Below, piece by piece: positions 1 to 21,977 of a DNA stretch of 32,000 bases; the stretch's first letter is position 1; each line of letters starts with the position of its first letter. Position numbers and translations under genes: made by a program. The notes below the pieces were generated by a model. That model worked only from the letters and a program-made list of their open reading frames with translations, was not told the origin of the DNA and ran no database searches. The DNA is from an uncultured Collinsella sp. (GTDB lineage Bacteria > Actinomycetota > Coriobacteriia > Coriobacteriales > Coriobacteriaceae): positions 597,295-629,294 of the forward strand of contig CATXID010000001.1 in NCBI GenBank assembly GCA_958369225.1, read 5' to 3'.

Positions 1-1877
1 CCGCACAGATCATGTTTAGGCAGGTCTTCGAAAACGCCAAGGTGACGGTTGGCAAAAACGTTTTTGACGTTGAGGAATATCTGGACGACACCCGTTTTAA
101 CAGCGCGTCGGGGCTGGCGCTGCGCGTTATTTCTGGTGTGGATGGCGCCCCGATCCCTTCGCGCGAGGACCTGCTCCTTAGCTCTAGCAGGGGAGAGGCC
201 ATTGTGGCGCTCGATGCCCAGCAGGATTATTACGACTGTCTGTATCAGTCGGCATGTATTGAGCAGTATCTCAATAGCCGTCAGGCAGACAATCACAGCG
301 AAGTGGTGGCTTCGATCTTGCGTGGTAAGCAGCAAGAGCGTGTCGCTCTGGATAAGCGTGCCGAGGACCTTATGCGCCAGGCGGTGCTGCATGGAACGTT
401 CTATATCTACGGCAGTGAGTATTCGCCAGTCAAATCGGCGTCTGCCAAGAATATGATCGAGGACTGCGTACGCCAGCTTGTTTCCGTTACGTACAACAAG
501 TTGTCGCTTATTGATAAAAACTACGACAGTGATGTGCAGATCAAGCAAATTCTAACCGCTTACACTCCGGCAATGAATGGGCAAGAGCCTAACGCTGGGG
601 CCATCGAAGCGGTTATGCGCCTGCTGGAAGCTCGCGTTGCCCAACATATGCAGGTAACAATGGGTGAGCTGCTCGAGACGTACCATGCGAAGCCTTATGG
701 TTGGGCGGAAATTGACATTGCCGCCGTGGTTGCAACGCTGCTAGCGCAAAAGCGTGCTCGCCTGCTCTGCGCGGGACAAGCGATTGATCTTAGGGATTCC
801 AAGATCATCGATTATCTGCGAAAGGCTGCTAAGGCACGACAGGCTGTTGTTGAGGCGCGCCAGCAGCTTTCTCGGGCTTCCATATCCAAGGCGCGACAGG
901 CCGTAGAAGAACTGGGCGGCAATCATACTTTGCCGCTCGAAGAGGACAGTCTTGCCGAAGCATGCCGTAAGGAGCTTGAGGGGCGCCGCGACGGCTTAAC
1001 GGGTCTTCTTTCGGTCGAGTACCTGCGTAACCCCGATTACCCGGGCTACAAAGAGGTCGTGGATGCAAAGAACCTTATCGAGAGCGTATTGCAGAGTGGC
1101 CGCGATGCCGTCGATCTAATTGCGGCAATCGCTGGAAAAGAGAACGAGCTGCGGGATACGGCTGAAGATCTCGAAGACATTGACGAGTTTTTCGGGAGCA
1201 AGGTGACCGTATTCGACAGTGCCTGCGAGATATTCAAGCAAATAGAGAGCGAGCGCGATTACTTTGAGGGCTCCTCGGAAACGCTGAATGCACTTTCTGT
1301 CATCAGGGAAGCAGTTAAGAAACCAAGTCTGAGCCTGCAGTTCCAAAAGCTATCCGAGGCAAACCTAAAGGTGAGAGCTGCCTACAAGGAGCTTTTGGAC
1401 CAAAAGCGTATCGCCATGCTCAATTCTGTCGAGGAGCGCTATAAGGATATCGAAGCGTATGCCCAAAACAAGGGCGTTGCGCTGACGCGCATTGGGGAGG
1501 CGCATAGTGCTCGAAAAGATGAGGTACACAATGCAGCGACGCTGACCGCCCTGGATGCTGTGCCCGTCAAGCTCGATCGTGCTCAGACGACCCTGTACAA
1601 AATGATTGACGATGCCTATGAAGAGGCGAATCGTCCCAAACCGGCAAATACGAGCGTGACGGTAACGACTGATTATTCGGGGGCCACTGCGCCAGGCCTG
1701 CCGAATAAGCCCCAATCTGCACCGGCACCTAGGCGACGTGTTAAATCGGTGAGTCGCAGCATGGTGTTTAGGCCGCTGGAGCTGAGCTCGCAACAGCAGA
1801 TTGATGACTATTTGGATGCCGCGCGCAAAGAGCTACTGCGAAGCCTTGAGGGTAATGACGCCATCCGTTTGGGCTAA
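1..1877 (+). CDS. brxC: C-terminal ~620 aa of a large protein whose 5' end is off-window. Its position directly upstream of pglX fits the BREX ATPase BrxC/PglY.
   Basis: The frame is open from the first bases of the window, with no stop before the ATG at 12. It ends at TAA 1875-1877, 9 nt before the pglX start. The visible part is long and helical with no catalytic motif; the P-loop part would lie upstream. The assignment rests on brxC-pglX synteny only. Confidence 0.55.
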   Translation, partial: AQIMFRQVFENAKVTVGKNVFDVEEYLDDTRFNSASGLALRVISGVDGAPIPSREDLLLSSSRGEAIVALDAQQDYYDCLYQSACIEQYLNSRQADNHSEVVASILRGKQQERVALDKRAEDLMRQAVLHGTFYIYGSEYSPVKSASAKNMIEDCVRQLVSVTYNKLSLIDKNYDSDVQIKQILTAYTPAMNGQEPNAGAIEAVMRLLEARVAQHMQVTMGELLETYHAKPYGWAEIDIAAVVATLLAQKRARLLCAGQAIDLRDSKIIDYLRKAAKARQAVVEARQQLSRASISKARQAVEELGGNHTLPLEEDSLAEACRKELEGRRDGLTGLLSVEYLRNPDYPGYKEVVDAKNLIESVLQSGRDAVDLIAAIAGKENELRDTAEDLEDIDEFFGSKVTVFDSACEIFKQIESERDYFEGSSETLNALSVIREAVKKPSLSLQFQKLSEANLKVRAAYKELLDQKRIAMLNSVEERYKDIEAYAQNKGVALTRIGEAHSARKDEVHNAATLTALDAVPVKLDRAQTTLYKMIDDAYEEANRPKPANTSVTVTTDYSGATAPGLPNKPQSAPAPRRRVKSVSRSMVFRPLELSSQQQIDDYLDAARKELLRSLEGNDAIRLG

Positions 1878-1886
1878 GGGAGAAAC

Positions 1887-4436
1887 ATGGATACGAAAGA
1901 GCTCGAAAAGTTTTGCCCTTGGGCGCGCATCCGTTTAATTGACGAGGTTCGTCAGCGTTGCTATGCCTACGGGCTCGACGATGCGGGGCGTGAAGAATTC
2001 GATCGCGATGCAACCATCGTTAAGGGCACGGTGCTCTCTGCGCTCGAGCGTTCACAACGTTCGGAGCTGTATCGCCGCATAGAGCATGGCGGCTATGCGC
2101 ACTTTTGCGAGGAAATGGCCTACACCTGGTTCAATCGCTTCGCTGCAATACGCTATATGGAAGTACGAGGCTATCTGCCTTGTGGCGTCCGCATGCTAAG
2201 TTCATATTGCGAAACCTCGGGGTACGATAGATTTTCGCCAGACTGCTTGCGTATGCCGACGGAGCTTGATCTGCCGGGCTTAGAGCGCGATCGCGTGTTT
2301 GACCTTGTCGCTGCGGCAGATGATGAGGCGCTGTTCCGTCTTATTTTGGTGGCGCAGATGAACGAGCTCGCCGAGTGCCTGCCCGACATCTTTGGCCGCG
2401 TGGGCACGGCGGATGCGTTACTGCTTCCGACAAGGCTTTTGGACTGCGGCGAAGAAGGTGTACTGTGCGCTCTAGTCGAACGGGTTAAGCGAAGCACGTG
2501 GGAAAACGTTGAGTCCTTGGGCTGGATGTATCAGTTCTACAATTCCGAGGTCAAAGACGCATTCTTTAAATCTAAGGCCAAGGAGACGCCGGACACCATT
2601 GGTCCGGCAACACAGCTATTTACGCCCAGCTGGATTGTGCGCTACATGGTGCAGAATTCCTTGGGGCGCTTGTGGATGCTGAACAATCCGGGAAGTCCCC
2701 TGCGCGACGACATGGAGTACTACATCGAGCCCGATACGGAGCACGAGGACTTCATTAAAATCGAGGGCCCCGAGGATATTTCGCTGTGTGATCCGGCTTG
2801 CGGATCGGGTCACATTCTCGTTTACGCTTTTGAGCTTTTGGCAAAGATGTATTTAGAGCGCGAATACCGCATGCGCGATGTCCCCGGACTCATTCTGTCC
2901 AAGAACCTTCATGGTATGGAAATTGACCCTCGCGCCGCCCAGATTGCGGGGTTGGCGCTGGCTATGTGTGCCCGAGAGATGGATAGACGTTTCTTTAACC
3001 GTGGAGTTCAGGCGGATATTGCCGTGCTCGAGCCGGTTATGCTGGAGGAGGATGACATTCCGCACGGCGCCGCGCTTGCCAAGAAGAAGGACCTCATCGA
3101 TGCTCTATCGCATCTGGGCGAGGTCGGCTCGCTGCTCGCTCCAAGTGAGGGCGACCTTGCCGCACTGCGTGAGACGATCGAGCTCACCGGCACCGATGGT
3201 CTGTTTGACGGTAGTTCTAAAAACAAACTGGAATGTGCCCTTAAGACCTGCGAGATCCTCGCTCGCCGCCACGACTGCGTGGTGGCCAACCCGCCCTACA
3301 TGGGAAGCTCTAGCTTCGGCTCCTTCATGTCTAAGTGGGTCAAGAAGAACTACCCCGACGTGAAGAGCGATTTGTTCTCCAGCTTTGTCGTCCGCATGTT
3401 CAATCTCGCCAAAGACCACGGCGAGTGTGGCGTCATGTCGCCCTTCGTCTGGATGTTCATCGGAAGCTACGAGAAGCTCCGCAACGAGATTATCGACAAC
3501 AGAACGCTGACTTCTCTCATCCAGCTCGAGTACTCGGGTTTCGCTGGTGCGACTGTGCCCATCTGTACCTACACGTTCCACAATTCATTCATCAAGGGCT
3601 ACAAGGGCGGCTATGTGCGCCTTTCGGACTTCGTTGGAGCTTCCGGTCAGGCCCCGAAGGCCCTCGAGGCGATCCGAAATCCCGACTGCGGCTGGTTCTA
3701 CCGTCGCGACGCCGAGACCTTCAAACAGATCCCCGGCACTCCCATAGCCTACTGGGCTAGCGACGCGCTTCTGGATGCGTTTGAAAACGCAAAGCAACTC
3801 AGTGAGTACGGAAAACCGCGTCAAGGGCTTGCTACTGGTGAAAACGCTCGTTTCGTTCGCGAGTGGTGGGAAGTCGATGGTTGTAAGAGCGCCTACTCCT
3901 GTGGGTCTATTCAAGAGTCGATTGAAAGCGCTTGTAAATGGTTCCCCTACAACAAGGGTGGCGATTTCCGTAAATGGTACGGAAATAATAGCGCAGTTGT
4001 TAACTGGGAGAATGACGGATGGGAGATTCGTAATTACAAAGACCAGAATGGTAAATTGCTTTCCAGGCCACAGAATACAAACTGCTTCTTTAGTCCATCG
4101 ATTACCTGGTCGAAGATTTCGAGTGGGTCTATTGCATTTCGCTTTAAGCCTGCTGGCCATGTGTTTGATGTGGCGGGTACAAGCGTTTTTAGCGATCAGA
4201 AATCACTCAAGTATCTTCAGGGAGCGTGCAACAGTTCTGTGATTATGCGCGTCGCGAGCATGCTTTCGCCGACACTCAATTTCGAGGTAGGCCAAATCGC
4301 AACCTACCCGATTATTCAGAACGAAGAGCAGGAGCCGTTGGTCAACAATATGGTTGACTCGTGCCGCAAACTATCAAAAACCGACTGGGACTCGTTTGAA
4401 ACCTCCTGGGATTTCAAACGTAATCCTTTGGTGTAG
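1887..4436 (+). CDS. pglX: BREX N6-adenine DNA methyltransferase PglX, N-terminal 849-aa part (N-terminal helical region, SAM-binding and catalytic domain, and the following domain)
   Basis: SD AAGGGAG precedes ATG 1887. The N-terminal signature EMAYTWFNRFAAIRYMEVRGYLP is typical of PglX and type IIG enzymes. SAM motif I DPACGSGH lies at 2790-2813 and catalytic NPPY (VVANPPYMG) at 3288-3299. The ORF ends ...DWDSFETSWDFKRNPLV at TAG 4434-4436, about 320 aa short of a full-length ~1200-aa PglX. Confidence 0.9.
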   Translation: MDTKELEKFCPWARIRLIDEVRQRCYAYGLDDAGREEFDRDATIVKGTVLSALERSQRSELYRRIEHGGYAHFCEEMAYTWFNRFAAIRYMEVRGYLPCGVRMLSSYCETSGYDRFSPDCLRMPTELDLPGLERDRVFDLVAAADDEALFRLILVAQMNELAECLPDIFGRVGTADALLLPTRLLDCGEEGVLCALVERVKRSTWENVESLGWMYQFYNSEVKDAFFKSKAKETPDTIGPATQLFTPSWIVRYMVQNSLGRLWMLNNPGSPLRDDMEYYIEPDTEHEDFIKIEGPEDISLCDPACGSGHILVYAFELLAKMYLEREYRMRDVPGLILSKNLHGMEIDPRAAQIAGLALAMCAREMDRRFFNRGVQADIAVLEPVMLEEDDIPHGAALAKKKDLIDALSHLGEVGSLLAPSEGDLAALRETIELTGTDGLFDGSSKNKLECALKTCEILARRHDCVVANPPYMGSSSFGSFMSKWVKKNYPDVKSDLFSSFVVRMFNLAKDHGECGVMSPFVWMFIGSYEKLRNEIIDNRTLTSLIQLEYSGFAGATVPICTYTFHNSFIKGYKGGYVRLSDFVGASGQAPKALEAIRNPDCGWFYRRDAETFKQIPGTPIAYWASDALLDAFENAKQLSEYGKPRQGLATGENARFVREWWEVDGCKSAYSCGSIQESIESACKWFPYNKGGDFRKWYGNNSAVVNWENDGWEIRNYKDQNGKLLSRPQNTNCFFSPSITWSKISSGSIAFRFKPAGHVFDVAGTSVFSDQKSLKYLQGACNSSVIMRVASMLSPTLNFEVGQIATYPIIQNEEQEPLVNNMVDSCRKLSKTDWDSFETSWDFKRNPLV

Positions 4437-4964
4437 GTGGTCGCAGTGGGACCTGTAACAATCGATGGTGCAAACTATTACTCATCTCAAGATGTCGCTG
4501 AGCTGTGGGGCGTTAAAGAGGCTACGATCAGGAGATATGCAGAGCCGAAGTCCGGCAAAATTCCTGATTGTATTAAACGTGGCAAATACTGGTATATCCC
4601 CGTAACCGCAATTCGGCCGATTACAAAACCAGTGGCGCAGGGCTTGCTGTGGGGCATCATAGGCGTAAAGAATGACCCTTCTTCCTTTTTAGATTTAAGC
4701 GCGGAAGGAATTGACAATTCTTTACTGGACACCGTTCTTAATGAGCTGCATCGGCAGAATTATTTACTCGTGGACTTTGCTATCGATGATCTTCACGAAA
4801 GACTTGTCCAAGCACGAATTACAGTCAAAGGATTTGAGTTAGTTCGTTATAGGAAGCGTTTCAAAGAGAATTCTCTCGAAGATTTTGATCCTGCCGACGC
4901 TATATCCATTGCTCTGTCTGCCGTTCAAACAGTTATGCAGTTAGCTCAATTCTTTCAGGGATGA
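4437..4964 (+). CDS. Small helix-turn-helix protein (excisionase/MerR-like HTH_17-type N-terminus plus an uncharacterised helical C-terminus), encoded inside the pglX split
   Basis: The N-terminus YYSSQDVAELWGVKEATIRRYAE...GKIPDCIKRGKYWYIP matches the Xis/MerR-like HTH pattern (helix-turn-helix followed by a G-K-x-W/Y-x-I/F wing). There is no internal ATG, so the start must be GTG 4437 or GTG 4446; the latter has AGGTGG 5 nt upstream. The sequence is visibly more AT-rich than its flanks. Confidence 0.7.
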   Translation: MVAVGPVTIDGANYYSSQDVAELWGVKEATIRRYAEPKSGKIPDCIKRGKYWYIPVTAIRPITKPVAQGLLWGIIGVKNDPSSFLDLSAEGIDNSLLDTVLNELHRQNYLLVDFAIDDLHERLVQARITVKGFELVRYRKRFKENSLEDFDPADAISIALSAVQTVMQLAQFFQG

Positions 4965-5138
4965 CGAAACCGACTTTATGACGAGCGGGGCGTGGGCGTG
5001 ATGAGTGATAGCTGGTCGTACTCCTTACATCTTTCTCGCTTTAATAAACGGCTTCATTTGTTGTTACTTCGGCTACTCTGCCGTATCAAAATGTCGCCAC
5101 TTGAGCTGAATTACGGCTCGATTAGATTGGGTGTAAAC

Positions 5139-6107
5139 ATGTCAACACTACTCGCCGATAAATACGAGGCTCGCAAGGCCGAGGTCAATGCTCGCTTTGA
5201 GCAGCTTCGCGCTAACGAGGAGGAGCTCAACCGAATCTTTGCCAAGATCTACAACATGGAGGGCGAGGTGCCCATCGAGGTCGAGGATAAGTACGTGTCG
5301 GTGGCACGCATCTTCGACACCGCCGACGAGATCCCCGAGAGCTATAAGGGCAACAAGTATGTGCGCACCAAGCGCGACGAGATCACCTCGCTCATGAGCT
5401 ATGCCGTGGGCTGCATGTTCGGCCGCTATTCGCTGGACGTGGACGGTCTGGTTCTGGCCGACCAGGGTGCCACGGTCTCTGACTATCTGGCCAAGATGCC
5501 CGATCCCGAGAATGTGACCTTTATGCCAGATAGCGACAACGTGCTGCCTATCACCGATGACGAATACTTTGACGACGACATCGTGCGTTACTTTATCGAC
5601 TTTGTGCGCACCGTGTATGGCGAGGAGACGCTCGAGCAGAACCTGGCCTTTATTGCCGAGGCGCTCGGCGGCAAAGGCACCTCGCGCGAGGTAATTCGCA
5701 CCTACTTTTTGAAGGACTTCTTTAAGGACCACTGCCAGACCTATAAGAAGCGCCCTATTTATTGGCTGTTCGATTCGGGCAAGAAGGGCGGCTTTAGGGC
5801 GTTGGTCTACATGTATCGCTATCGCCCTGATTTGTTGGCGCTGATTCGTACGGGTTATATCCATCCTCAGCAAGAACGTTACCGCAATCGGCTGATGTGG
5901 ATTGCCGACCAGATGGAGGTAAGCGACAGCCGTGATCGTGCTCGTCTTGCTAAGGAACAAAAGCGCATAAGCGACCAAGCTGCCGAGCTCGTGAGCTACG
6001 AGGAGAAGGTCCATCACCTTGCAGACCAAATGATTGAGATTGATTTGGATGACGGCGCTAAGGTTAATTACGCCAAGTTCCAGGACGTCCTCGCCAAAAT
6101 CAAATAG
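5139..6107 (+). CDS. pglX: PglX C-terminal fragment (322 aa)
   Basis: EELNRIFAKIYNMEGEV...EVEDKYVSV and KKRPIYWLFDSGKKGGFRALVYMYRY are the conserved C-terminal blocks of BREX PglX. It is in the same reading frame as 1887-4436. 849 + 322 aa adds up to about a full-length PglX. Recognisable homology starts at the ATG at 5139; the frame is open back to 4965, but that stretch looks non-coding. Confidence 0.85.
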   Translation: MSTLLADKYEARKAEVNARFEQLRANEEELNRIFAKIYNMEGEVPIEVEDKYVSVARIFDTADEIPESYKGNKYVRTKRDEITSLMSYAVGCMFGRYSLDVDGLVLADQGATVSDYLAKMPDPENVTFMPDSDNVLPITDDEYFDDDIVRYFIDFVRTVYGEETLEQNLAFIAEALGGKGTSREVIRTYFLKDFFKDHCQTYKKRPIYWLFDSGKKGGFRALVYMYRYRPDLLALIRTGYIHPQQERYRNRLMWIADQMEVSDSRDRARLAKEQKRISDQAAELVSYEEKVHHLADQMIEIDLDDGAKVNYAKFQDVLAKIK

Positions 6108-6139
6108 CCGTCTGCGTGCTAGAAGTCGAAAGAGCCGCT

Positions 6140-8095
6140 ATGGGATCATTGGTAAACAACAATCAGATCATTCGAATCGATAGCAATCTTCTGCTCGATC
6201 CAGCCATGTGCGATGCGTACATGGACGGTTCCTACCTATGCTTGACCCCCAATGAGTTCAACATCTTGTTTTGTATGGCTCAAAAACCGGGTCATGCATT
6301 TTCTCGCCAAGAGCTGTTTGTTGCGGCATTTGGCCACGATGACCCTAAGTCGCATCGAGTGCTCGATAGCCATATCAAGAACATTCGCAAGAAACTGAAA
6401 GAAGATGCCCGCAACGCTCGTTGGCTTAAGGGCGTTCACGGTTATGGCTATCGTCTCGATTTTGCTCCGGGATTTGAGCCTGAGGTGTGCGTTGGTGAGG
6501 GCGGGCGTGTATTTCGTTCTGCGCATGGCGACCGTGTGCTTGTCGTTGATTCTGAGAACCGTATTGTTCAGCTCGATGGCGAGGAACTCGCGCTTACGCC
6601 AATTGAATATAGTGTCTTGAATGCACTTACGACTAGGTCAAGCGTTGAGATTTCAAATGAGGAACTGTCGCAGATCTCGATGGGCGTTGGCTTCGCCGAA
6701 TCGAATAGAGCTCTAGCTTCGCATGTTAAAAACCTCCGTAAGAAACTGGGAGATGAGGTAAAGAATCCCCTGTGGATTAAAACGGTGCATGGTTTTGGCT
6801 ATCGGTTTTTGGGTGCCGAAGAAACTCCCGAGCCGCATGAAGAGCAAATACTAGATGACACCCTAGTCGAGCTTTCCGAGCAGCTGCAAATGGCGTTTGA
6901 GGCAACGTCCGGTTCCATTCTTTTGTGGCATGACGTTGGGGGCGCGTATGCGGATGTCGTCGGACAGCTTTTGTTGCCCGATGATGTCGTGTTGATTCGC
7001 GAGGATGCTGCTAACAAATTTGAGACCATCCGAGCCATTAACGAACTCGGTTTTGACGAGCGAGCGCTATTCTATCGGTCGTCACCGTGCGTTGTCGATG
7101 CAAATGACTGGTTTGCAGACGTTGAAGCAAGCGCCGAGAGCTTTGTCCCTGAGGCGCATGTTGAGGCGATTGAGACACGAGAAGTCGTCGCCGATGTCGA
7201 TGAATGCGGGCCGGCCGCGGCAGCTCCGCGCGCTGCTGTGGCTGAAGACGTACATCCCCAGCCGTTCCATGGCGAGCATGTTGATACCGGATCTGAAGGC
7301 GTCATGGCCAGTGAGCCAACTCTTCCCAAGCTTGATGAGGATTGGTATCTGCTTTCCCAGTTTGCGGAGCTGGCGGGATGCTCGCCCGACGAAACGCTCA
7401 AGCTGGAATTGTTTGCCTATCAAACGGGGTTCGCGCTTTACGCTGACTGCGCCTGCAGAGGTAGGGGTGTAAGCCAGACAGATTTCTACCTGTCTTTGAT
7501 GCATGGAGCTATCGTCGAGCACGATAGCCTGCCTCAATCCATGTTGAACTGTATGTCCTTTAAAAACATGGTCTATCGAGCCATTAGGTCGGGCGACTTG
7601 CTTGACTACGATGAGTCGAGCTGGATTACGCGCGATGGTCTTAATGAGCTTGATATTAGGGATGCCGATTTGCGCAGCTTTGCTTTGGATGCTATCGAGC
7701 GTGGCGCTGATGACGGCACGCCGTACTTTACCGTGCCGTGGCTTAGGCGCTGCGCATCCGATTTGCCCTTACTCGAGTATGGTCTATCCGATGCATTTTA
7801 CGAAAGCGCCCTCTTGTCGCAGGAGGACTTGTTGGGCCACGGAAACCTTGTGGGCATTAAGCTCTTTGCGCCACGCGGCCATTCCATGAAGGGCCGTGAT
7901 TTTATCCAGGCGGTGGTGGCGCGCGAGATATCGATCGATATCGACGATCTTGTCGGCTTGCTTTCGGAAGAGTACGGCGTAGTGGTTCCGCGTGCACAGC
8001 TCATCCAGATAATTCGTAAGTCGGACTTGTTTTATTCAAGCGCTAGCGAGCGCGTATTTGTTAGCCATGACCAGTTTGTACTAGAAGTGGAGTAA
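6140..8095 (+). CDS. Multidomain protein: two tandem OmpR/PhoB-type winged-helix DNA-binding domains, a PglZ-N-terminal-like domain, an acidic linker and an unknown ~260-aa C-terminal domain
   Basis: wHTH 1 spans ~6167-6463 (LTPNEFNILFCMAQKPGHAFSRQEL...HIKNIRKKL...GYGYRL). wHTH 2 spans ~6536-6814 (LTPIEYSVLNAL...HVKNLRKKL...GFGYRF). There is no receiver domain. Residues encoded at ~6863-7153 parallel the first ~100 aa of the PglZ encoded at 11220 (ILLWHD / IVVWHD, LFYR / LIYR, DWFADVEA / DWLADVEA). ATG 6140 has GAAAGAG upstream; GTG 6116 is an alternative start. Confidence 0.8.
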   Translation: MGSLVNNNQIIRIDSNLLLDPAMCDAYMDGSYLCLTPNEFNILFCMAQKPGHAFSRQELFVAAFGHDDPKSHRVLDSHIKNIRKKLKEDARNARWLKGVHGYGYRLDFAPGFEPEVCVGEGGRVFRSAHGDRVLVVDSENRIVQLDGEELALTPIEYSVLNALTTRSSVEISNEELSQISMGVGFAESNRALASHVKNLRKKLGDEVKNPLWIKTVHGFGYRFLGAEETPEPHEEQILDDTLVELSEQLQMAFEATSGSILLWHDVGGAYADVVGQLLLPDDVVLIREDAANKFETIRAINELGFDERALFYRSSPCVVDANDWFADVEASAESFVPEAHVEAIETREVVADVDECGPAAAAPRAAVAEDVHPQPFHGEHVDTGSEGVMASEPTLPKLDEDWYLLSQFAELAGCSPDETLKLELFAYQTGFALYADCACRGRGVSQTDFYLSLMHGAIVEHDSLPQSMLNCMSFKNMVYRAIRSGDLLDYDESSWITRDGLNELDIRDADLRSFALDAIERGADDGTPYFTVPWLRRCASDLPLLEYGLSDAFYESALLSQEDLLGHGNLVGIKLFAPRGHSMKGRDFIQAVVAREISIDIDDLVGLLSEEYGVVVPRAQLIQIIRKSDLFYSSASERVFVSHDQFVLEVE

Positions 8096-8099
8096 GACA

Positions 8100-9323
8100 A
8101 TGGAAATGGAAAAGTTCATCAACACGGGTATTGCTGAGGGCTGGGTTCGCAAAACCGACAATAGCGAGCGCAAGTTTATTAACGGTCAGAACCAGGATTG
8201 TCCAATTTACGAGGTGCGCGTCGATAAGTTGCATTTCAATGTGCAGAATGGACGAATTGCTACCTTCATTTCGCGCTATCAGGCAGAGCATCCCGAGGGC
8301 CTGCCTCAGGATCAAACGGAGCTCGATAACCTCATTGCGGGTATGGTCGAGGCGGATAACCCCAAGCATCTTAAGACGACCATGTTGGATATTAAAAACA
8401 AGGGCCAACAACAATCTGCGATCATCTTGACCAACGGCGTTGTCATTGACGGTAACCGTCGTTTTACCTGCTTGCGTAAGTTGTCTGCTGCCGAGAACAC
8501 CCTTCGCATGCTGCGCTGCTGTGTGTTCCCCGATACCTATGACGAAAATGCCATTAAGGGCCTTGAGCTCGAGATTCAGCTGGGCGAGGACACCAAACAG
8601 GAATATGATGCCATCTCTCGTCTGGTAGATATCGATAGGTGGGTCAATGAAGGGCGTATGACGGCAGAAGAATATGCCAAGCATGCCAATATGAAGCAGA
8701 GCGAAATGAAGAACAGTCTCGCTCAAATCGATATGTTGAAAGATTTTCTTGAGTTCTGCGAGGCTCCCGGCGCATTTCATATTGCCCAGGACCTTAAGTT
8801 GCAAGGCCCTATCGAGTCGCTTACGACCAGGCTTGGTAAGGTCAAGAACAAGGACGATCGAGAAGAGATTAAAAATGCCGTGTTTGCAAATTTGTTGTGT
8901 CAGACGCTCGGTGACCGCACGCGTGAGGTGCGCGAGTTTATCGATAATTTGATTGATGACGACAAGCTGCGCGAAGAGCAGCTGGATTATACCGTTGAGG
9001 TTTTGGAAAGGCTTGAGGAAAAGCCCGAAGACGTGGTTGTCACTACGGAATATCTTCGCGATACGTTTGGCTCTGACACGCGTTTGAAAGAGGGGATGAA
9101 GGCGTCTAGAACCGTTGCCCGCACGAAGGCCGGCAATCGTAACATCAAAAACGGACAAGTGCGCGCCGTCCGCAACGCACTCTCGAATGTTGGCGAAGTT
9201 GACGTGGAAATACTACACAAACTGGAGCCCGAACAACTTGCCAATATGCAGGATGGGCTGCAGTCCCTTCTTGAGAAAGCCCAGGAAGTTCTCGATGTCG
9301 TCCAAAAAACTCTAGAAGGCTAA
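8100..9323 (+). CDS. ParB/Srx-fold (ParB N-terminal-like) domain protein with a helical C-terminal half
   Basis: KGQQQSAIILTNGVVIDGNRRFTCLRKL is the ParB-N/DndB-like core, with DGNRR at 8448-8462. The upstream block VRVDKLHFNVQNGR resembles the first ParB-N box. The ATG is 4 nt after the preceding stop and has GTGGAG upstream. Confidence 0.75.
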   Translation: MEMEKFINTGIAEGWVRKTDNSERKFINGQNQDCPIYEVRVDKLHFNVQNGRIATFISRYQAEHPEGLPQDQTELDNLIAGMVEADNPKHLKTTMLDIKNKGQQQSAIILTNGVVIDGNRRFTCLRKLSAAENTLRMLRCCVFPDTYDENAIKGLELEIQLGEDTKQEYDAISRLVDIDRWVNEGRMTAEEYAKHANMKQSEMKNSLAQIDMLKDFLEFCEAPGAFHIAQDLKLQGPIESLTTRLGKVKNKDDREEIKNAVFANLLCQTLGDRTREVREFIDNLIDDDKLREEQLDYTVEVLERLEEKPEDVVVTTEYLRDTFGSDTRLKEGMKASRTVARTKAGNRNIKNGQVRAVRNALSNVGEVDVEILHKLEPEQLANMQDGLQSLLEKAQEVLDVVQKTLEG

Positions 9324-9326
9324 GCA

Positions 9327-11204
9327 ATGCGTTTATATCAGCGAGGCGGACAAATCTATCTTGATCCCGAGCCTCTCGATGCCGACTCTCTGCGTCGCAA
9401 TGCTCGCTTTAAGATGACCTGCAGGGCATACGTCAGATGTGTCGTTAAGGGTCATATTTTGCTTGAAGAGATCGGCAACTATACGGAGTTCGAAAAGATT
9501 GTTGGCAAGTTATCGAAGGTTGCCAGCCGTCTTGGTGTGGCGCTATCGGTCGATGAGGACCTTCAGGACGGCTTTACGCAGATTCGCGAACTTGCCGAGC
9601 AACGTTCGCGTTTGGGGAATGAGATCAAACGCGGCGATCACAAGCACGATGCCCATCTCGCAGAGTTCTCGGAGGTCGTCGATGCCGCCATGGTGCGTCC
9701 GCTAAAGGATCGTCAGATGCGCGACGCGTTTTTCTTGGCAACGATGGGACGTGCGGGAAACTTCTCGGTGCCGGGGTCGGGTAAAACGGCGACCGTGCTG
9801 GGTGCATTTGCCTTTTTGGCGGCCCGCAGCATGGTCGATCGCATTATGGTCGTGTGCCCAAAAAACGCATTTGATTCCTGGGCGACGGAGTGGGGACTGT
9901 GCTTTGGTGATAAGCGGCCGCTCAGCTTGTTTACGACGCAAGACGATGCTTACCGAAAGCTTGGTAAGTCTGACCGTCGGAGCTATATTCGCGCTCGTGT
10001 GGGCGGTTGCAATTTGCTGCTTGTGAATTACGAGGCGGCTATTGGCGTTGCCGAGGAACTCAGTAAGGTCGCTGGAAATCGTACGCTTTTGGTGTTCGAC
10101 GAAATCCATCGCGTTAAGCGCGTTGGCGGAAAGCAAGCTAACGCGGCTCTCGTGGTTTCCAAGAGTGCTCCCTATACGTTTGCCCTGACGGGCACGCCAA
10201 TTCCTAACGGATATATCGATATTTACAATATGTTGCACATTCTGTATCCGCGGGAGTATGACAACTTTTTTGGCTTTGAGAAAAGCGAGCTCAAAAATGC
10301 CGAGGACTCGGACATTGAGCTCGTGAACAACAAGCTGCAGCCGTTTTATTGCCGTACGACCAAGGATGACCTAGGCGTCCCGAGGGCTGAGCCCGACGAG
10401 CTTATCAAGGTGTCGTCTGGCGAGCGTACGAATCTACTGCTCGGCGTTATTAAAAACCGTTACCGTCGCAACAAGCTGACCTTGATGCTGCGTGTGCTGC
10501 AGATGGAAAACGATCCGATTGACCTGCTCGAAACGCTTAATCCCGAAGACTATCGTTGGATTATCGAAGAAGACGAGGAGACCGGCGAGGTCGATGCCGT
10601 CGACTACTCCGATAAGATTGTGGGCATGATTCGATCTGCCGGGGCATCGAGCAAACGTGCTCGATGCTGCTCTCTTATTGGCGACTTGGTGGCACAGGGG
10701 CGCTCGGTTATCGTCTGGTGCATTTTCATCAAGAGCATGTCCGATCTTCAGCGCGGTCTGGCTGGTATGGGGATTGAGGCGCGTACGATTAACGGCCAGG
10801 ATGACCTTGTCTGTCGTTCGGCAGACCTGGATGACTTTAGGGCTGGCAAGTTTCCCGTACTCATTACCAATCCTCATACGCTTGCCGAGTCTGTCTCGCT
10901 GCATTCGATTTGTCACGATGCCGTGTACTACGAGTACAGCTTTAATCTGGTTCATTTGCTGCAGTCCCGCGATCGAATCCACCGTTTGGGCCTGCCGCAA
11001 GATCAGCAGACAAGGTACTACTACCTTTCGGAAGATTACGACCTTGGAAAACCCGATCCATGGTCGCTTGACGAGGAAATATATACTCGCCTGCGCGAAA
11101 AAGAGAACACCATGCTCAGGTGTATTGATTCCGAAATACTCGAGACGCAGCCTACCTCTCAAGAGGATTTGGATGCTATTTTCGCCGGTTTGTTTGATGA
11201 CTAG
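9327..11204 (+). CDS. SNF2-family superfamily-2 helicase/translocase (the COG0553-like class to which BrxHII belongs)
   Basis: Motif I VPGSGKTA lies at 9768-9791 and motif II DEIH at 10098-10109. Motif III LTGTPIPNG is SNF2-typical, and the C-terminal helicase lobe has motif VI LLQSRDRIHRLGL. The ATG is 3 nt after the ParB-like stop. Confidence 0.9.
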   Translation: MRLYQRGGQIYLDPEPLDADSLRRNARFKMTCRAYVRCVVKGHILLEEIGNYTEFEKIVGKLSKVASRLGVALSVDEDLQDGFTQIRELAEQRSRLGNEIKRGDHKHDAHLAEFSEVVDAAMVRPLKDRQMRDAFFLATMGRAGNFSVPGSGKTATVLGAFAFLAARSMVDRIMVVCPKNAFDSWATEWGLCFGDKRPLSLFTTQDDAYRKLGKSDRRSYIRARVGGCNLLLVNYEAAIGVAEELSKVAGNRTLLVFDEIHRVKRVGGKQANAALVVSKSAPYTFALTGTPIPNGYIDIYNMLHILYPREYDNFFGFEKSELKNAEDSDIELVNNKLQPFYCRTTKDDLGVPRAEPDELIKVSSGERTNLLLGVIKNRYRRNKLTLMLRVLQMENDPIDLLETLNPEDYRWIIEEDEETGEVDAVDYSDKIVGMIRSAGASSKRARCCSLIGDLVAQGRSVIVWCIFIKSMSDLQRGLAGMGIEARTINGQDDLVCRSADLDDFRAGKFPVLITNPHTLAESVSLHSICHDAVYYEYSFNLVHLLQSRDRIHRLGLPQDQQTRYYYLSEDYDLGKPDPWSLDEEIYTRLREKENTMLRCIDSEILETQPTSQEDLDAIFAGLFDD

Positions 11205-11219
11205 TTTTGAGAGTTTGCC

Positions 11220-13841
11220 ATGAAGCTTGCAGATATTACATCCGAGCTGCTGCATTTGTTTGCAGGTCAGGACGCCGATTGCGGGGGCGCCATTGTTGTA
11301 TGGCATGATCCGTCCGGTGAATTTGAGGATATGCTTGCAGATTTGGAGCTGCCGGGCGTCAGCGTTCTCGTTGATCGCGAGGGTGGTCGGTTTGCTATCA
11401 AGCGTAAGCTCAATGGTGACTTGGGCGGACGTAAGGTGCTTATATATCGTCGCTGCGTAGGGGAGCCGTCTGGCGATTGGCTGGCGGATGTTGAAGCGCG
11501 TTGCGTCCCGTTTGCCGCCGACTATGTTTCTGTGCAGCTACGCGAGATCGGCGCGGTTGATTCGTATGAGATGCGCGCGGCGCTTGAATCCCATAAAGCT
11601 TTTTTTGCCAAGCGCCGCAACGTTATAAAGCTCAACAAGTTGCTACATTCATCGAGAGAAGTCGCTGTTGAGACCGTCGATGAGCTTGAACTTGGCATTT
11701 TGGCTACCTGCTTGGGTGTCAGCGAGCTCGATCCCGCGGCAATCGTATCAGGCTATTTGGCACTCCTGCACGAGGGCAATGCTGATCAGGTGGTTGTCCT
11801 ACTTGCTGAATATGAGATGAATGGCTATTTCTGCGAGCTCATTCGTCATTGGTGTGGTTTTGAGGGGAACGCGCTCGAGCTATCTCGTGTTCCCGAGTTG
11901 CTGGTCCACGTGTTGCTCACCGCCTGCTCACGGTCGGTGACGGGTGGATGTCTGGACGCGCTGTCGGGACGCTTCTCTTCCCAGGCTGTTCACGCCGCGT
12001 TCTGCCGCGCTTGCGTTGATCATTGGGTTCGTGGCGGTAATCGTCTATTGCTGTTGAGTATGACAACGGCGGTAGAGCGTGAGCTTGAGCTTGGAAAGAT
12101 ACTCGCTGACGTTGGTCTTGACTGTATTGCCGGAGCCGACGTCTTTCCCTGCATCGATGCCGCCATTCTGCGCATGCTGTTTGAGCGGGTACGTCTGTCT
12201 GTGGATGCTGCTGATGAGGTTTTGTCGGTCGTCGTCTCTCGTCGCGGATCGCTCTGGTATGAGGAACTTGCCTGCTATTATCGCGGCGTTTCGGCTGCAG
12301 CTCATATGCAGCGTTTTTATCGCGACCATGTAGAGGGTTTTGCGGGCATGGGGGCTTTGGCCCTTTGGGGTTCTTATGTCAGCGATTTCTATCGCATGGA
12401 CGCTTGGTACCGTGAGCTGGTGACAGAGTTCGCCGGTGCCTTTAGAGCGGGGGAGTACGAGCTCGATGAAGACTTCCGCGCCTGCTTTGAGTCGATGGAA
12501 GCTTTGTATAAAGGCTGGTTTCTTAAGGAGCTCTCTCGCCGTTGGGCAAGCGCATCGGGCGACGCATTGGGCTTGCAGGGATATGTGAAAGGTATTCCGC
12601 GTCAGGTTGATTTTGATCTGAGCTACGTTGAGCCCGCGAATCGCCGCGGAAAGCGTATTTGGGTCATCGTATCTGATGCTTTGCGCTATGAGGTTGCTGC
12701 AGAACTCGCCGAGCGTCTTGAGCGCGAGACAAAGGGTCAGTGCGAGCTTGGTGCCGTGCAAGGCGTGTTTCCTTCGATAACCAGATGCGGTATGGCTGCC
12801 TTGTTGCCTCATGGAACGATGCGTTACGAGGCATGCGGAGAGGCAGGATCGGGCTTTGGCGTGCTTGTTGACGGGGGGCGCGTCGATACCATCGAATCCC
12901 GCCAAAAGGTGATTGGCAAGCATTATGAGGGCGCTGTTGCGGTTCGCTATGACCGTTTTGTCGGCGAGATGGACCGTGCCGAACGCAAGAAAGCCGTGGG
13001 AGACGCGAACGTTGTCTATATCTATCACGATCTCATTGATGCCATTGGTGACAAGGCCGCAACCGAGCGCAGGGCGTTTCATGCCTGCGATGAAACAATT
13101 GACGAGTTATCGGTGCTGGTCAAGCTCATTGTGCGTGAGTTTATGTCGTCTCGAATCGTCATTACGGCAGATCATGGGTTTCTGTATACCGCAGAGCCGC
13201 TTGCCGAATATGATCATACGAGTGTTGCGGACGTGGCGGGTGACGTCATTGAGGCTGGACGCCGCTGGGCTGTTGCCTCGAGCGATTCTGAGTCCGATAC
13301 GCTGCTTAAGGTTGCTCTACCCGCTTCTGCTGGTAGCCTCGTGGGCTTTTCGCCACGTGAATGCGTGCGTTTGCGACGTCCCGGCGGAGGCGAGAACTTT
13401 GTCCATGGCGGCATCTCATTGCAGGAGATGTGTGTGCCGGTCTTGACCTTTAGCAATAAGCGCGCCGGAACGCGTGGCTTTGTCGCATCGAGCCCCGTTG
13501 GCTTGTCCCTCGTTACGCAACTTGAATCCATCTCGAATACGTCTTTCTTCCTGGAATTTCTGCAAGATGAGGCGGTGGTCGGCAAGATTCTTCCTGCGAA
13601 CTATGAAGTGTTTGTTGTCGATCGCAGCGGAAACCCTGTAACCGACATTGCAAGAATCGTAGCCGATTTGACTGAAGTCGATGCGAGGGCGCGCCGCTTT
13701 AAGGTAATGCTGACGGTGCGTCCAACCGTTGAACTTGATGAACGCGCGGAGTATGCACTTTGCCTGAAAAACGCGGATAGCGGCGAAGAGCGTGTTCTTC
13801 AGACGCTGCACTTCCATGTTTATCTGGGTCGTGAATGGTAA
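11220..13841 (+). CDS. pglZ: BREX alkaline-phosphatase-superfamily protein PglZ
   Basis: It is 873 aa. The PglZ-domain signature VIVSDALRYEVAAELAERL lies at 12663 onward. The alkaline-phosphatase-like ITADHGF lies at 13161-13181 and is followed by HGGISLQEMCVP. It sits in BREX context. Confidence 0.9.
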   Translation: MKLADITSELLHLFAGQDADCGGAIVVWHDPSGEFEDMLADLELPGVSVLVDREGGRFAIKRKLNGDLGGRKVLIYRRCVGEPSGDWLADVEARCVPFAADYVSVQLREIGAVDSYEMRAALESHKAFFAKRRNVIKLNKLLHSSREVAVETVDELELGILATCLGVSELDPAAIVSGYLALLHEGNADQVVVLLAEYEMNGYFCELIRHWCGFEGNALELSRVPELLVHVLLTACSRSVTGGCLDALSGRFSSQAVHAAFCRACVDHWVRGGNRLLLLSMTTAVERELELGKILADVGLDCIAGADVFPCIDAAILRMLFERVRLSVDAADEVLSVVVSRRGSLWYEELACYYRGVSAAAHMQRFYRDHVEGFAGMGALALWGSYVSDFYRMDAWYRELVTEFAGAFRAGEYELDEDFRACFESMEALYKGWFLKELSRRWASASGDALGLQGYVKGIPRQVDFDLSYVEPANRRGKRIWVIVSDALRYEVAAELAERLERETKGQCELGAVQGVFPSITRCGMAALLPHGTMRYEACGEAGSGFGVLVDGGRVDTIESRQKVIGKHYEGAVAVRYDRFVGEMDRAERKKAVGDANVVYIYHDLIDAIGDKAATERRAFHACDETIDELSVLVKLIVREFMSSRIVITADHGFLYTAEPLAEYDHTSVADVAGDVIEAGRRWAVASSDSESDTLLKVALPASAGSLVGFSPRECVRLRRPGGGENFVHGGISLQEMCVPVLTFSNKRAGTRGFVASSPVGLSLVTQLESISNTSFFLEFLQDEAVVGKILPANYEVFVVDRSGNPVTDIARIVADLTEVDARARRFKVMLTVRPTVELDERAEYALCLKNADSGEERVLQTLHFHVYLGREW

Positions 13842-13868
13842 GTGGGGGCTGAATAGGGAGGCTGCATC

Positions 13869-14090
13869 ATGAAGATCGAAGTTGATGTCGGTCAGCTGCG
13901 CGAGAGTCTGCTCGATCGTGCGGGGAGCGCGACGGCCGCGGGCTTTCCGGCTGCCATGCTCGACGTGATGGATATCGAGGACGAGTCGCCCCAAGAGTTC
14001 CTAGCCCGAGCCGAACGCGAAGGCCTCGACCTCTGCGACTTTGCCGTCGATGATGAGGACGACGGCTATGACACGGACGAGGACTGGTAG
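13869..14090 (+). CDS. 73-aa highly acidic hypothetical protein with C-terminal tail DDEDDGYDTDEDW
   Basis: A strong SD GGGAGG lies 7 nt before ATG 13869. It is co-directional with pglZ and starts 27 nt after the pglZ stop. It is the last ORF before the island boundary. I recognise no domain. Confidence 0.55.
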   Translation: MKIEVDVGQLRESLLDRAGSATAAGFPAAMLDVMDIEDESPQEFLARAEREGLDLCDFAVDDEDDGYDTDEDW

Positions 14091-14110
14091 CCGCGATTGA
14101 ACTTCAACCC

Positions 14111-14205
14111 CATCCCCCTCAATAAGTTGCGGTGGAATAGGGACTGAAATGGCTGTTCAGAAGCCTATTCAGTCCCTATTTCACCGCAACTTATGGGTGG
14201 GGATG
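14111..14205. repeat. ~95-bp imperfect palindromic element with core arm AAGTTGCGGTG(G/A)AATAGGG
   Basis: Left arm ATAAGTTGCGGTGGAATAGGGACTGAA (14122-14148) pairs with right arm TTCAGTCCCTATTTCACCGCAACTTAT (14068+100 = 14168-14194) with one mismatch. The outer extension CCATCCCC.../...GGGGATGG also pairs. The element fills the convergent gap between the acidic ORF and the antiporter gene. A related copy lies at 31933-32000. Confidence 0.8.
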
Positions 14206-14206
14206 G

Positions 14207-15808
14207 CTACGACGCCAGCGTGGCGATGACGGCTTCGTCGCCGGCGTATATGAGGGTGTTGCCGTCGGGAATGATCGTTTGGCCGTCGCGCTTGAGCATC
14301 ACGACGATAAAGGGGTGCTTGCCCTGCGGCACATCGCGCAGGCGCAGCCCCGCCAGGCGACCGTGGGACGTAACGGTGACTTCGCGCAGCGTAACCTCGG
14401 CACGCTCTTCAAACGTTGGCGCGGCCATAACCAGAAGGTCGCCTTCTTCGATGACGGTGTCGCCGTTGGGCAGCACCGGGTGCGCGCCGTCGCGCAGTAC
14501 CAAGACCACCAGCATGTCCGTGGCGCTGCCAATATCGGCGAGCGAGCGTCCGGCAAACGGATGTCCAGCTCCCACCTTGAGCTTGACGAACGACATGCCG
14601 TCCTCGTCGCGGTAATCGTTAAAGGTGCGGCGCACGTCGCCTTCCGCGTCGATCATGTCGAGCTTCTTTGCCACCGCCGGCAGCAGCGAGCCCTGCACCA
14701 CAATGCTCGACACAGCAATCACAAACACCAGGTCAAATAGGTCGTGCCCACCGGGAACGCCGGCTACCACGGCAAAGAGGCTAAATACGACCGAAGCCGC
14801 GCCGCGCAGCCCCGCCCAGCTTACGAGTGCGACCTGGCGAGGGTTCGTCTTAAAGGGTGCCAACAGCATGCCCACGGCGATGGGGCGGCTCACAAAGAGC
14901 ATAAACGCCATGAGTGCCAGGCCCGGTAGCAACATTTGCGGCAGGCGCGCGGGCGTCACGAGCAGGCCGAGCAAGAAGAAGATGGTCATCTCGGCCATCT
15001 CGGTAAGAGTGTCGAAGAAGTGCGCCATCTCGACCTTGCCGGTGATGTCGCTCGCACCCAGCACAATTCCGGCAAGGTACACGGCCAAAAAGCCGTTGCC
15101 ACCCAGATAACTCGGCAGTGCGTAGGCGACGATCGCCACAGCGAACAAGAAGATGGTCTGCGCACCCTCGGCTGTTGCATGTGTGCGTTCGATCAAGCGG
15201 CCCGATGTCCAGCCGATGACAAGGCCCAGGCCCACACCTAGGATGATTTGCTTGGCCAGCAGCACGGGGATGTTAACGTCGCCGCCCGCCGCGAGGGTCG
15301 CGAGCACGGCGGTGAGCATGTAGGCGACGGGATCGTTGGAGCCCGATTCGACTTCGAGCAGCGAGTCGGTGCCGCCCTTTAGCGAAAGACTGTGCTCGCG
15401 CAGCACGCTAAAGACGCTGGCCGCGTCGGTGGATGCCACGACTGATCCCAGCAGCAGGCCGCCGATCCAGTCGAAGCCCAGTACAAAGTGCGCGAACACG
15501 CCCGTGATGCCAGCGGTGATGACGACGCCGAGCGTGCTCAGCAGCACCGCGGGCACAGCGACAGGTTTGGCGCGGTCGATGTTGGTGTTAAAGCCGCCGT
15601 AGAACATGATGAACAGCAGCGCCGTGCTGCAGACGGTTTCGGTGAGCGCATAGTCGCTAAAGTCGATGTGCGCCGGACCGTTGACGCCCAGCAGCATGCC
15701 GAGTGCGATAAAGATGAGCAGGGTGGGGAAGGGGAGCTTTTTGCCGACGGGCTTGATGGTCAGGCACAGAATAATGACGAGCCCGATAAAGAGAAGTATC
15801 TGGTTCAT
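14207..15808 (-). CDS. K+/H+ (cation:proton) antiporter, CPA1/NhaP2-CvrA type, with C-terminal TrkA-C/RCK-C domains
   Basis: It has a multi-TM N-terminus with ASTDAASVF and LLEVESGSNDP motifs. Two TrkA-C-like repeats are present at the C-terminus (DGAHPVLPNGDTVIEEGDLLVMA and DGQTIIPDGNTLIYAGDEAVIA). The ATG has AGGAG upstream. Confidence 0.9.
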   Translation of the reverse strand: MNQILLFIGLVIILCLTIKPVGKKLPFPTLLIFIALGMLLGVNGPAHIDFSDYALTETVCSTALLFIMFYGGFNTNIDRAKPVAVPAVLLSTLGVVITAGITGVFAHFVLGFDWIGGLLLGSVVASTDAASVFSVLREHSLSLKGGTDSLLEVESGSNDPVAYMLTAVLATLAAGGDVNIPVLLAKQIILGVGLGLVIGWTSGRLIERTHATAEGAQTIFLFAVAIVAYALPSYLGGNGFLAVYLAGIVLGASDITGKVEMAHFFDTLTEMAEMTIFFLLGLLVTPARLPQMLLPGLALMAFMLFVSRPIAVGMLLAPFKTNPRQVALVSWAGLRGAASVVFSLFAVVAGVPGGHDLFDLVFVIAVSSIVVQGSLLPAVAKKLDMIDAEGDVRRTFNDYRDEDGMSFVKLKVGAGHPFAGRSLADIGSATDMLVVLVLRDGAHPVLPNGDTVIEEGDLLVMAAPTFEERAEVTLREVTVTSHGRLAGLRLRDVPQGKHPFIVVMLKRDGQTIIPDGNTLIYAGDEAVIATLAS

Positions 15809-20979: not shown

Positions 20980-21020
20980 AAAACCACCACAAAGGGGACG
21001 GGCGCCTTTGTGGTGGTTTT
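20980..21020 (+). terminator. Conserved hairpin family, copy 1 (inverted loop orientation), acting as the pckA terminator
   Basis: AAAACCACCACAAAGG-GGACGGGCG-CCTTTGTGGTGGTTTT. The loop is approximately the reverse complement of the loop in copies 2-4. Confidence 0.8.
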
Positions 21021-21191
21021 ACTCACGCGAATGACTCGGGTTACAATACGCCTGACATATCGCCCCCTTCTCCGGATGGGGGCAGCGTAAGCGCTCTTGT
21101 GGCGGCACCGTAGGACTTTGAAGGTGGCCGCTGTGAGGGCGCTTTTTGTTTAGGCGTCCGGACTCGGGCGTCCGCTATGAAGGGAGAACAT

Positions 21192-21936: not shown

Positions 21937-21977
21937 AAACCACCACAAAGGTGCCTGTCCCCTTTGTGGTGGTTTTT
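21937..21977 (+). terminator. Conserved hairpin family, copy 2
   Basis: AAACCACCACAAAGG-TGCCTGTCC-CCTTTGTGGTGGTTTTT lies 25 nt after the stop of the B3/4 gene. Confidence 0.8.

Follow-up and report, generated by a model that had tools for sequence, protein, structure and literature searches.

We analysed a 32,000-nt window, the whole of the stretch presented here, from contig CATXID010000001.1 of an uncultured Collinsella sp., and focused on the bacteriophage exclusion (BREX) locus that it carries. The locus is a type-1-like BREX system of a Collinsella species, with brxC (partial), pglX and pglZ as the core genes within the window (Table 1); brxA and brxB are expected upstream of it and occur in two related loci, L099 and L102. 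The methyltransferase gene pglX does not encode a single polypeptide of ~1,150-1,250 aa; it is present as two open reading frames (ORFs), pglX-N and pglX-C, which lie 702 nt apart with another gene, encoding a helix-turn-helix (HTH) protein, in between. An earlier reading, made from the sequence alone, had noted this division and proposed three explanations: a functional split enzyme, a former single-chain enzyme switched off by two nonsense mutations, or regulated stop-codon readthrough.

Table 1. Features of the Collinsella BREX locus, in window coordinates.
Feature	Coordinates	Strand	Evidence and remarks
brxC (pglY), C-terminal 621 codons	12..1877	+	Cut by the window start; Pfam BrxC 4th, wHTH and helical domains; PADLOC BrxC 4e-92
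pglX-N, 849 aa, ending ...SWDFKRNPLV-TAG	1887..4436	+	PADLOC PglX 7e-279; NCBIfam BREX_1_MTaseX
Hypervariable, apparently swappable target-recognition domain (TRD) block within pglX-N	3305..4374	+	No blastn match against L015
Conserved 62-nt hinge between TRD block and cargo slot: DWDSFETSWDFKRNPLV codons plus stop	4375..4436	+	
Shine-Dalgarno-like AGGTGGT overlapping the pglX-N stop	4435..4441	+	Junction recurs in most cargo types; putative function
Slot cargo: 172-aa HTH DNA-binding protein	4446..4964	+	Pfam HTH_17; 38 homologue clusters; dN/dS
Non-coding spacer, 174 nt	4965..5138	+	No conserved ORF; 3-5 in-frame stops in relatives
pglX-C, stand-alone PglX C-terminal domain, 322 aa, starting MSTLLADKYE	5139..6107	+	PADLOC PglX 1e-116
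Second accessory block (3 genes) between pglX-C and pglZ	6116..11204	+	Pfam Trans_reg_C x2; SNF2-rel_dom, Helicase_C
pglZ, last BREX gene of the locus	11220..13841	+	Pfam PglZ 3e-48; PADLOC PglZ 2.5e-180

PglX-N comprises an N-terminal helical domain, a gamma-class N6-adenine methyltransferase domain (DPACGSGH, NPPY) and a TRD; methyltransferase motifs I and IV are found in its translation as DPACGSGHIL and VVANPPYMG, and the Pfam families Eco57I, N6_Mtase and MmeI_Mtase match it. The PADLOC PglX profile is matched at positions 1-869 of 1174 in PglX-N and at positions 876-1170 in PglX-C. Against NCBIfam NF033452 (BREX_1_MTaseX, cutoff 500 bits), PglX-N scored 887.6 bits over positions 1-899 of 1,210, and PglX-C, which covers only a quarter of the model (positions 906-1209), scored 368.7 bits, below the cutoff; jointly, the two span the whole profile save 6 positions. 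The break points in both models agree with the earlier observation that the gene is divided after the DWDSFETSWDFKRNPLV block and before EELNRIF.

On the E. coli BrxX sequence the break falls at residue 870/872 and on Salmonella PglX at about residue 885-886, with PglX-C aligning to BrxX 891-1195. Fused relatives carry a linker of 1 to ~45 residues exactly at this point, between ...HPL[VL] and the first CTD (C-terminal domain) helix. The break appears to lie in a surface linker of variable length in fused PglX proteins, so the split site would be naturally permissive, with essentially nothing removed. An AlphaFold model of PglX-C alone has a predicted local distance difference test (pLDDT) score of 93 and a predicted template modelling (pTM) score of 0.88, and superposes on the solved CTDs (9EWZ, 8C45) with TM-scores of 0.85-0.90; PglX-C is predicted to be a complete PglX/BrxX CTD that folds on its own. 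Went et al. reported that the CTD alone could not be expressed. The solved E. coli and Salmonella CTD bears a metal site as well as DNA- and Ocr-contacting lysines. The metal-site positions reported for BrxX (997, 999, 1001 and 1012) fall in the counterpart of PglX-C, with 997, 999 and 1012 being Asp in both proteins and I1001 aligned with Val, and the same segment includes the BrxX CTD residues that contact DNA and Ocr and most of the residues through which Salmonella PglX makes salt bridges to Ocr.

We carried out a species-level scan (one genome per species) with PglX-C and inspected the best 80 of 501 genome matches, all of which were loci from Collinsella or Coriobacteriaceae; 66 of these showed both pglX halves on the fetched stretch. 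pglX was broken at the same codon in every one of the 66 loci, and no fused pglX was seen among them. The gap between the halves measured 601-5,496 nt in these loci and exceeded 6 kb in six further ones. PglX-N ends in the consensus ...SWDFKRxPL[VLI] plus stop, and PglX-C always opens with M[SA]TLL.DKYE, preceded by its own ribosome-binding region; in the window this region lies in the last ~20 nt of the spacer (GGGTG, 5129-5133), and the true start of pglX-C is most likely ATG 5139. At least two further lineages share the split, which was found in L099, L102 and L105 (PglX-C 65-77% identical to that of the window) and in the more distant L094 (55% identical by tblastn; guanine-plus-cytosine (GC) content 0.49). 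Both halves were intact in 17 of 18 loci checked, at 824-856 codons for PglX-N and 322 codons for PglX-C, and the ratio of nonsynonymous to synonymous substitution rates (dN/dS) was 0.07-0.18 for PglX-C; at about 0.1-0.2, it points to purifying selection on both halves. In a broader survey of 2,769 PglX-C relatives, most full-length matches were single-chain proteins of 1,150-1,250 aa; the nearest fused relatives were 60-64% identical, and the fused set, including P0015 and P0021, 47-64%. The split appears to be old and stable, found genus-wide and maintained by selection. Of the three explanations first proposed, the functional split into a methyltransferase/TRD chain and a C-terminal chain is supported by the common break, the separate starts and the intact, conserved halves. 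A stable three-gene arrangement, which the sequence-only reading had set against its own proposal, is what the relatives display, with the same pglX-N stop, independent starts and no fused forms.

Much of the earlier proposal turned on a single reading frame running through pglX-N, the insert and pglX-C. The frame itself was correctly described: the one-frame translation of 1887-6107 holds 1,407 codons with only two stops (TAG 4434-4436 and TGA 4962-4964), and the ORF list places 1887-4436, 4437-4964 and 4992/5139-6107 in one phase. The meaning attached to it did not hold up. A stop-free spacer of 174 nt arises in 4.9% of shuffles, and the chance of a shared phase is 1/3. Where relatives share the insert, 3-5 in-frame stops interrupt a spacer of 170-178 nt, and the only stop-free one belongs to L014, a metagenome-assembled genome (MAG) identical to the window; one Collinsella MAG in the genome scan with PglX-C was 100% identical to it. 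pglX-N and pglX-C were co-phased in 25 of the 66 Collinsella loci (38%), as chance predicts. The shared phase of pglX-N and the HTH gene is limited to one clade with the conserved junction TAG-GTGRTNGYR-RTG, and is broken in L099 (stop/start overlap) and L105 (8-nt gap). Since the spacers of relatives are closed and the halves are co-phased only at the chance rate, the shared open frame of the three ORFs and spacer in this strain is a coincidence. No Rfam match and no terminator were found in spacer 4965-5138, which gave a fold z-score of -0.55 and promoter-like sites at chance level.

These data bear on the possibility that a single-chain PglX with an internal HTH recently gained two nonsense mutations, as an off-switch or a pseudogene. 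Such an origin would explain why N, insert, spacer and C share one phase, with only two stops, in this strain, and a Collinsella MAG with the same HTH cargo (L017, 6001-6966) does carry a nonsense codon, Q167*, in PglX-C, which reflects either a real case of inactivation or an error in the assembly. However, the TAG keeps its codon position among relatives with HTH proteins only 45-99% identical, overlaps a Shine-Dalgarno sequence, and is retained where unrelated genes occupy the gap. No N-HTH-C fusion was found among the 2,769 PglX-C relatives, the listed fused proteins (1,117-1,283 aa) being too short for the insert, and the spacers of relatives contain stops and stand in a different phase. 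All three genes are under purifying selection. We regard recent inactivation as extremely improbable.

Programmed readthrough or recoding, which would give PglX-N-HTH or the full N-HTH-C chain in a regulated fraction of products, seemed compatible with the junctions in the window, L001, L003, L007, L008 and L102, where 9 in-frame nt separate the TAG from the start of the HTH gene. This relation is lost in L099, L105 and many other cargo types (gaps of 7, 8 and 11 nt), and neither it nor a stop-free spacer is conserved; the conserved bases after the TAG read as a Shine-Dalgarno sequence (AGGTGAT), and no structure or Rfam element was found. Regulated readthrough is thus very improbable. Phase variation of pglX, which had also been raised, was rejected: whole-window and local repeat searches, made with shufflons as well in mind, revealed no relevant inverted repeats and no second pglX segment, and 1887-6107 contains no homopolymer of >=6 and no simple repeat of >=4 units.

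The comparison with relatives went beyond the original framing, as the insert is one of many interchangeable cargoes in a two-gene PglX. Clustering of ORFs in the gap gave at least 15 unrelated occupant sets, among them AbiL (AbiLi, 1e-85, with an RloB/AbiLii protein), Shedu SduA (5e-70), HEPN RiboL-PSP and another HEPN-like protein, SIR2-like proteins, DUF3800 and SMC/LmuB-like proteins of 528-896 aa. Several families had no annotation at all, and the unannotated cargo families, about a dozen, range from 107 to 306 aa and larger, with members of 202, 221, 230, 284 and 306 aa among them. The left junction was kept in 30 representative loci with unrelated cargo. The cargo starts 0-12 nt past the PglX-N stop (up to 35 nt in one locus), and in most cargo types the junction reads TAG-GTGAT/GTGGT with the cargo start 6-12 nt downstream. 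The slot of L094 carries a TIR-like gene, a 118-aa ORF (5409-5765) and then a Shedu gene, all upstream of a full PglX-C; the 118-aa ORF is 61.5% identical to PglX-C residues 1-104, and this duplicate looks like the scar of a nested cassette insertion by recombination at the pglX-C start. L098 (1-4010; on a contig of 32% GC), where a 326-aa PglX-C starts 11 nt after a 1,005-aa protein and PglZ comes next, was considered as an empty slot and rejected, as the upstream protein is neither PglX-N nor similar to the BrxC of the window; the arrangement may reflect a very large cargo or another order of the genes.

Two segments of the locus vary separately. Compared with L015, window positions 3-3304 and 4375-9000 are 92-95% identical at the DNA level and only 3305-4374 has no match, and compared with L076, L081 and L033, similarity extends up to 4439, is lost over 4440-5156 and is back in pglX-C. 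The homology breakpoints accordingly fall at 4374/4375 and 4439/4440. The last 249 aa of PglX-N range from 35% to 100% identity among loci, and GC drops from ~0.57 to ~0.45 from roughly 3850. The HTH cargo is paired with at least four TRD types, and a window-like TRD is also paired with a 221-aa cargo. The TRD block and the cargo appear to be exchanged independently around the 62-nt hinge. Repeat and domain searches of the insert found no terminal inverted or direct repeats, target-site duplication, transposase or integrase; for this reason, homologous recombination in the conserved flanks, including the hinge, would be the most economical mechanism of exchange, with 4375-4436 as a likely crossover site.

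We also weighed whether an autonomous mobile element (an insertion sequence, a homing-endonuclease-type gene, or an intein or intron relic) had landed in pglX. The GC of the insert is below that of its flanks, its HTH_17 domain is excisionase-like, cargo turnover at one precise site is reminiscent of cassettes or homing, and the duplicated 5´ fragment of PglX-C in L094 resembles an insertion scar. On the other hand, besides the lack of terminal repeats and target-site duplication, the 172-aa protein lacks any transposase, integrase or nuclease domain; the two stops exclude an intein, and no Hint, LAGLIDADG, HNH or GIY-YIG matches were detected. The HTH family was never seen outside the slot, and the breakpoints coincide with conserved host sequence, fitting homologous exchange. 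An autonomous element is improbable.

As the sequence-only reading had noted, the HTH ORF has no ATG near its start, leaving GTG 4437 and GTG 4446 as candidates. GTG 4446 is most likely the start, since the ATG start codons in L007 and L008 align with it; GTG 4437 is possible. Pfam HTH_17 (PF12728) matches residues 14-59 at 33.7 bits (cutoff 27), and PHROG families of excisionases and DNA-binding proteins are matched at 3e-7 to 1e-3. The N-terminal HTH_17 domain (Xis/MerR/BldC-like) is followed by a conserved core, IRPITKPVAQGLLWGI..VKNDP..FLDLS (in the alignments the fuller form is AIRPITKPVAQGLLWGI..VKNDP..FLDLS..GI.N), then by a second-winged-helix pattern and a hydrophobic C-terminal helix; a second winged helix is probable. 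PADLOC and NCBIfam gave no match and no effector domain was found. The N-terminus of the structural model resembles Pukovnik Xis and BldC; searches of the PDB gave no match at E <= 0.001, the matches to Xis/MerR/MarR-type folds being suggestive, not significant.

Homologues of the 175-aa ORF are 45-99% identical and nearly all 170-175 aa long, and a profile search gave 38 homologue clusters of 108-175 aa, mostly 159-175 aa; dN/dS for the gene is 0.14-0.20. The family is confined to this slot in every context examined. Its gene directly follows PglX-N in the window, L001-L010 and L099-L107, and comes second, after a DUF2971 gene, in L011. In L008, L102 and L105 it is followed by a DEAD/DpdF-like helicase of 1,200-1,250 aa, in L099 by DUF3800 and a 1,141-aa protein, and a 152-aa ORF comes after a distant homologue of the HTH gene (27-31% identical) in ten Collinsella loci. 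A hidden Markov model search for remote kinship with other slot cargoes recovered only the 168-aa, L048-type branch, and such kinship was set aside. A true excisionase (recombination directionality factor) was likewise rejected, as no recombinase is present among the annotated neighbours at 12-13841 and no flanking repeats were found; the HTH protein is three times the size of Xis, with a conserved extra region of ~110 aa. The position also fits an embedded BREX backup effector in the sense of PMC12839542, but the HTH protein has only DNA-binding domains, and this assignment was rejected too; the AbiL, Shedu and HEPN occupants of the same slot do fit it.

We infer, as the weakest step of the argument, that the HTH protein would serve as a regulator or adaptor, either of the slot and the BREX genes distal to it or in partnership with PglX itself, and not as an effector, because it is exclusive to the slot, is nearly always first in it, is coupled to the PglX-N stop and has helicase or DUF3800 partners elsewhere. 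It could instead represent the sensor component of a two-gene module that has lost its partner here, a DEAD/DpdF-like helicase or the 152-aa protein, by deletion, with the 174-nt spacer as the scar. The helicase, DUF3800 and 1,141-aa genes that follow it in L008, L102, L105 and L099, and the 152-aa ORF after its distant homologue, favour such a loss, whereas an HTH-only layout is kept in several diverged Collinsella lineages with dN/dS indicating constraint, and tblastn detected no similarity between the spacer and the 152-aa partner gene, so that a relic is unsupported. We rate this alternative as unlikely, though well worth keeping in mind; it is compatible with a two-gene PglX around a cargo slot and alters only how the role of the HTH protein is read.

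Collectively, these data make it quite likely that pglX is permanently two working genes enclosing a swap-slot for accessory defence genes, rather than that pglX is broken or read through. PglX would be encoded as two polypeptides by long-standing design, PglX-N (849 aa) and PglX-C (322 aa), and because the break lies in what appears to be a variable-length surface linker of fused PglX, the chains would be expected to reassemble non-covalently into a working enzyme. The slot occupant would be co-transcribed and is probably translationally coupled to PglX-N, given that the cargo starts close to the PglX-N stop, which usually overlaps the cargo Shine-Dalgarno sequence; translation of PglX-C would then restart from its own ribosome-binding site. 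TRD and cargo would be swapped separately, with homologous recombination taking place in conserved flanking sequence (methyltransferase end, 62-nt hinge, pglX-C start), and the slot here would hold one gene, for the 172-aa, putatively two-domain HTH DNA-binding protein.

Several points weigh against this explanation. Went et al. placed the specificity residues at 684-838, and Drobiazko et al. assigned R944 to the TRD; because the published borders differ, the break may lie inside the TRD by one group's borders and not at a strict TRD/CTD border. Association of the two chains, DNA methylation, which in type 1 BREX targets a non-palindromic 6-bp motif, and phage restriction by this locus are putative activities. 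brxL was not found after pglZ in window positions 13842-15808, where the next gene is a Na+/H+ exchanger on the opposite strand and the genes beyond are housekeeping genes; BrxL is present in the relatives L003 and L094, and the system here is non-canonical and could be partly inactive. The nonsense codon in L017 indicates that inactivation does happen. The model of the HTH protein is of low confidence (pLDDT 63), so that its role is read from domains and position, and its gene may be half of a two-gene module with the helicase partner missing here.

A further reading is that the split is an evolved docking arrangement: division at the TRD/CTD linker would have produced a dedicated cassette site, driven by recombination, whose occupants are co-translated with PglX-N and wired, as BREX guards or modulators, to the free CTD, the surface attacked by DNA mimics such as Ocr. 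We hold this only tentatively, and would sooner doubt than assert it. If true, the HTH family specific to the slot would count as a BREX component not recognised before, and the dozen or so cargo families without annotation would represent new antiphage genes.

The second accessory block encodes three proteins. The first, of 659 aa, carries two OmpR/PhoB-type winged-helix domains but lacks a receiver domain; the second, of 407 aa, matches no family; and the third, of 625 aa, is an SNF2-family helicase weakly similar to ZorD, DpdE and DrmD. The same trio is present in L001, L003 has ParE-like small genes and BrxL instead, and L102 has a 1,516-aa Trans_reg_C protein at this position. By analogy with helicase-containing BREX subtypes, the SNF2 helicase may stand in for BrxL. 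In L001 and L002 (1-3459), brxC is called as two ORFs, of 755+ and 434 aa, which suggests a second split BREX gene or a frameshift.

Repeats were also noted elsewhere in the window. A 45-nt inverted repeat (87% complementary, 7-nt loop) lies right after pglZ at 14110-14206, and its core, TAAGTTGCGGTGRAATAGGGA, occurs again at 13839-13859 and at 31933-31953, the latter copy being 100% complementary to the arm at 14173-14193; it may be a repetitive extragenic palindromic (REP)-like element or an island boundary. Four intergenic palindromic copies of 40-57 nt (AAACCACCACAAAGG...CCTTTGTGGTGGTTT) are found among the housekeeping genes, at 20981-21037, 21937-21993, 23515-23571 and 23921-23977, and resemble terminator hairpins or REP-like repeats. 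At 28342-28414 there is a tRNA gene (Rfam, 62 bits), and just downstream of it, at 28636-28725, two tandem 45-nt repeats encode an Ala/Pro/Lys-rich stretch.

PglX sets BREX specificity, and its CTD is the surface to which the phage inhibitor Ocr binds; licensing of methylation and contacts with other BREX proteins have been proposed as roles for the domain. A genus in which this domain is a separate protein, well folded in the model, offers a ready system for dissecting its role. The slot is a compact, precisely bounded place to seek new defence genes and shows how gut bacteria reshuffle their TRD alleles and accessory genes. In genome annotation, a pglX called as split in Collinsella should not be taken for a pseudogene. 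Our literature searches found no split PglX, let alone a fixed-codon cargo slot, described in searchable papers, and nothing relevant on BREX in Collinsella or on Collinsella methylomes.

To our knowledge, all solved and studied PglX proteins are single chains. The Collinsella enzyme shares its motif and domain order and its brxC-pglZ position with type 1 BREX PglX/BrxX (E. coli HS 9EWZ/8ZEK; Salmonella 8C45/8Q56), but consists of two polypeptides with other genes between them. Accessory or backup effectors embedded in BREX loci include PARIS, GmrSD/BrxU, Shedu, HEPN and OLD-ABC/TOPRIM modules (NAR 2026, PMC12839542), and the slot cargoes of relatives belong to the same classes (AbiL, that is, OLD-type ATPase plus RloB, Shedu and HEPN); the words "split" and "interrupted" do not occur in the text of that paper. 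Unlike those effectors, the Collinsella cargo sits inside the pglX coding region at a fixed codon, the enzyme is split, and the cargo in the window has no nuclease domain.

Phase-variable pglX genes are known that switch through simple-repeat frameshifts or through invertible shufflons with a recombinase. Variation in Collinsella is likewise centred on PglX specificity, the TRD block being the most variable part, but 1887-6107 has no homopolymer or simple repeats, no relevant inverted repeats, second pglX copy or nearby recombinase were found, and TRD variation arises between strains via allele exchange, not by a within-strain switch. In prr/rlo-type loci, the PrrC anticodon nuclease and the RloA-H genes lie between Type I hsd genes (EcoprrI, Campylobacter). 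There, too, accessory and abortive-infection genes are nested beside the specificity determinant, and RloB-family proteins occur in the Collinsella slot; coupling of the PrrC type, in which the accessory protein is a guard of the restriction complex, would be a putative parallel. The nesting of prrC and rlo genes among hsd genes would be the closest functional analogy; the subunits of Type I systems are naturally separate genes, whereas the Collinsella site was made by dividing a gene that is normally single.

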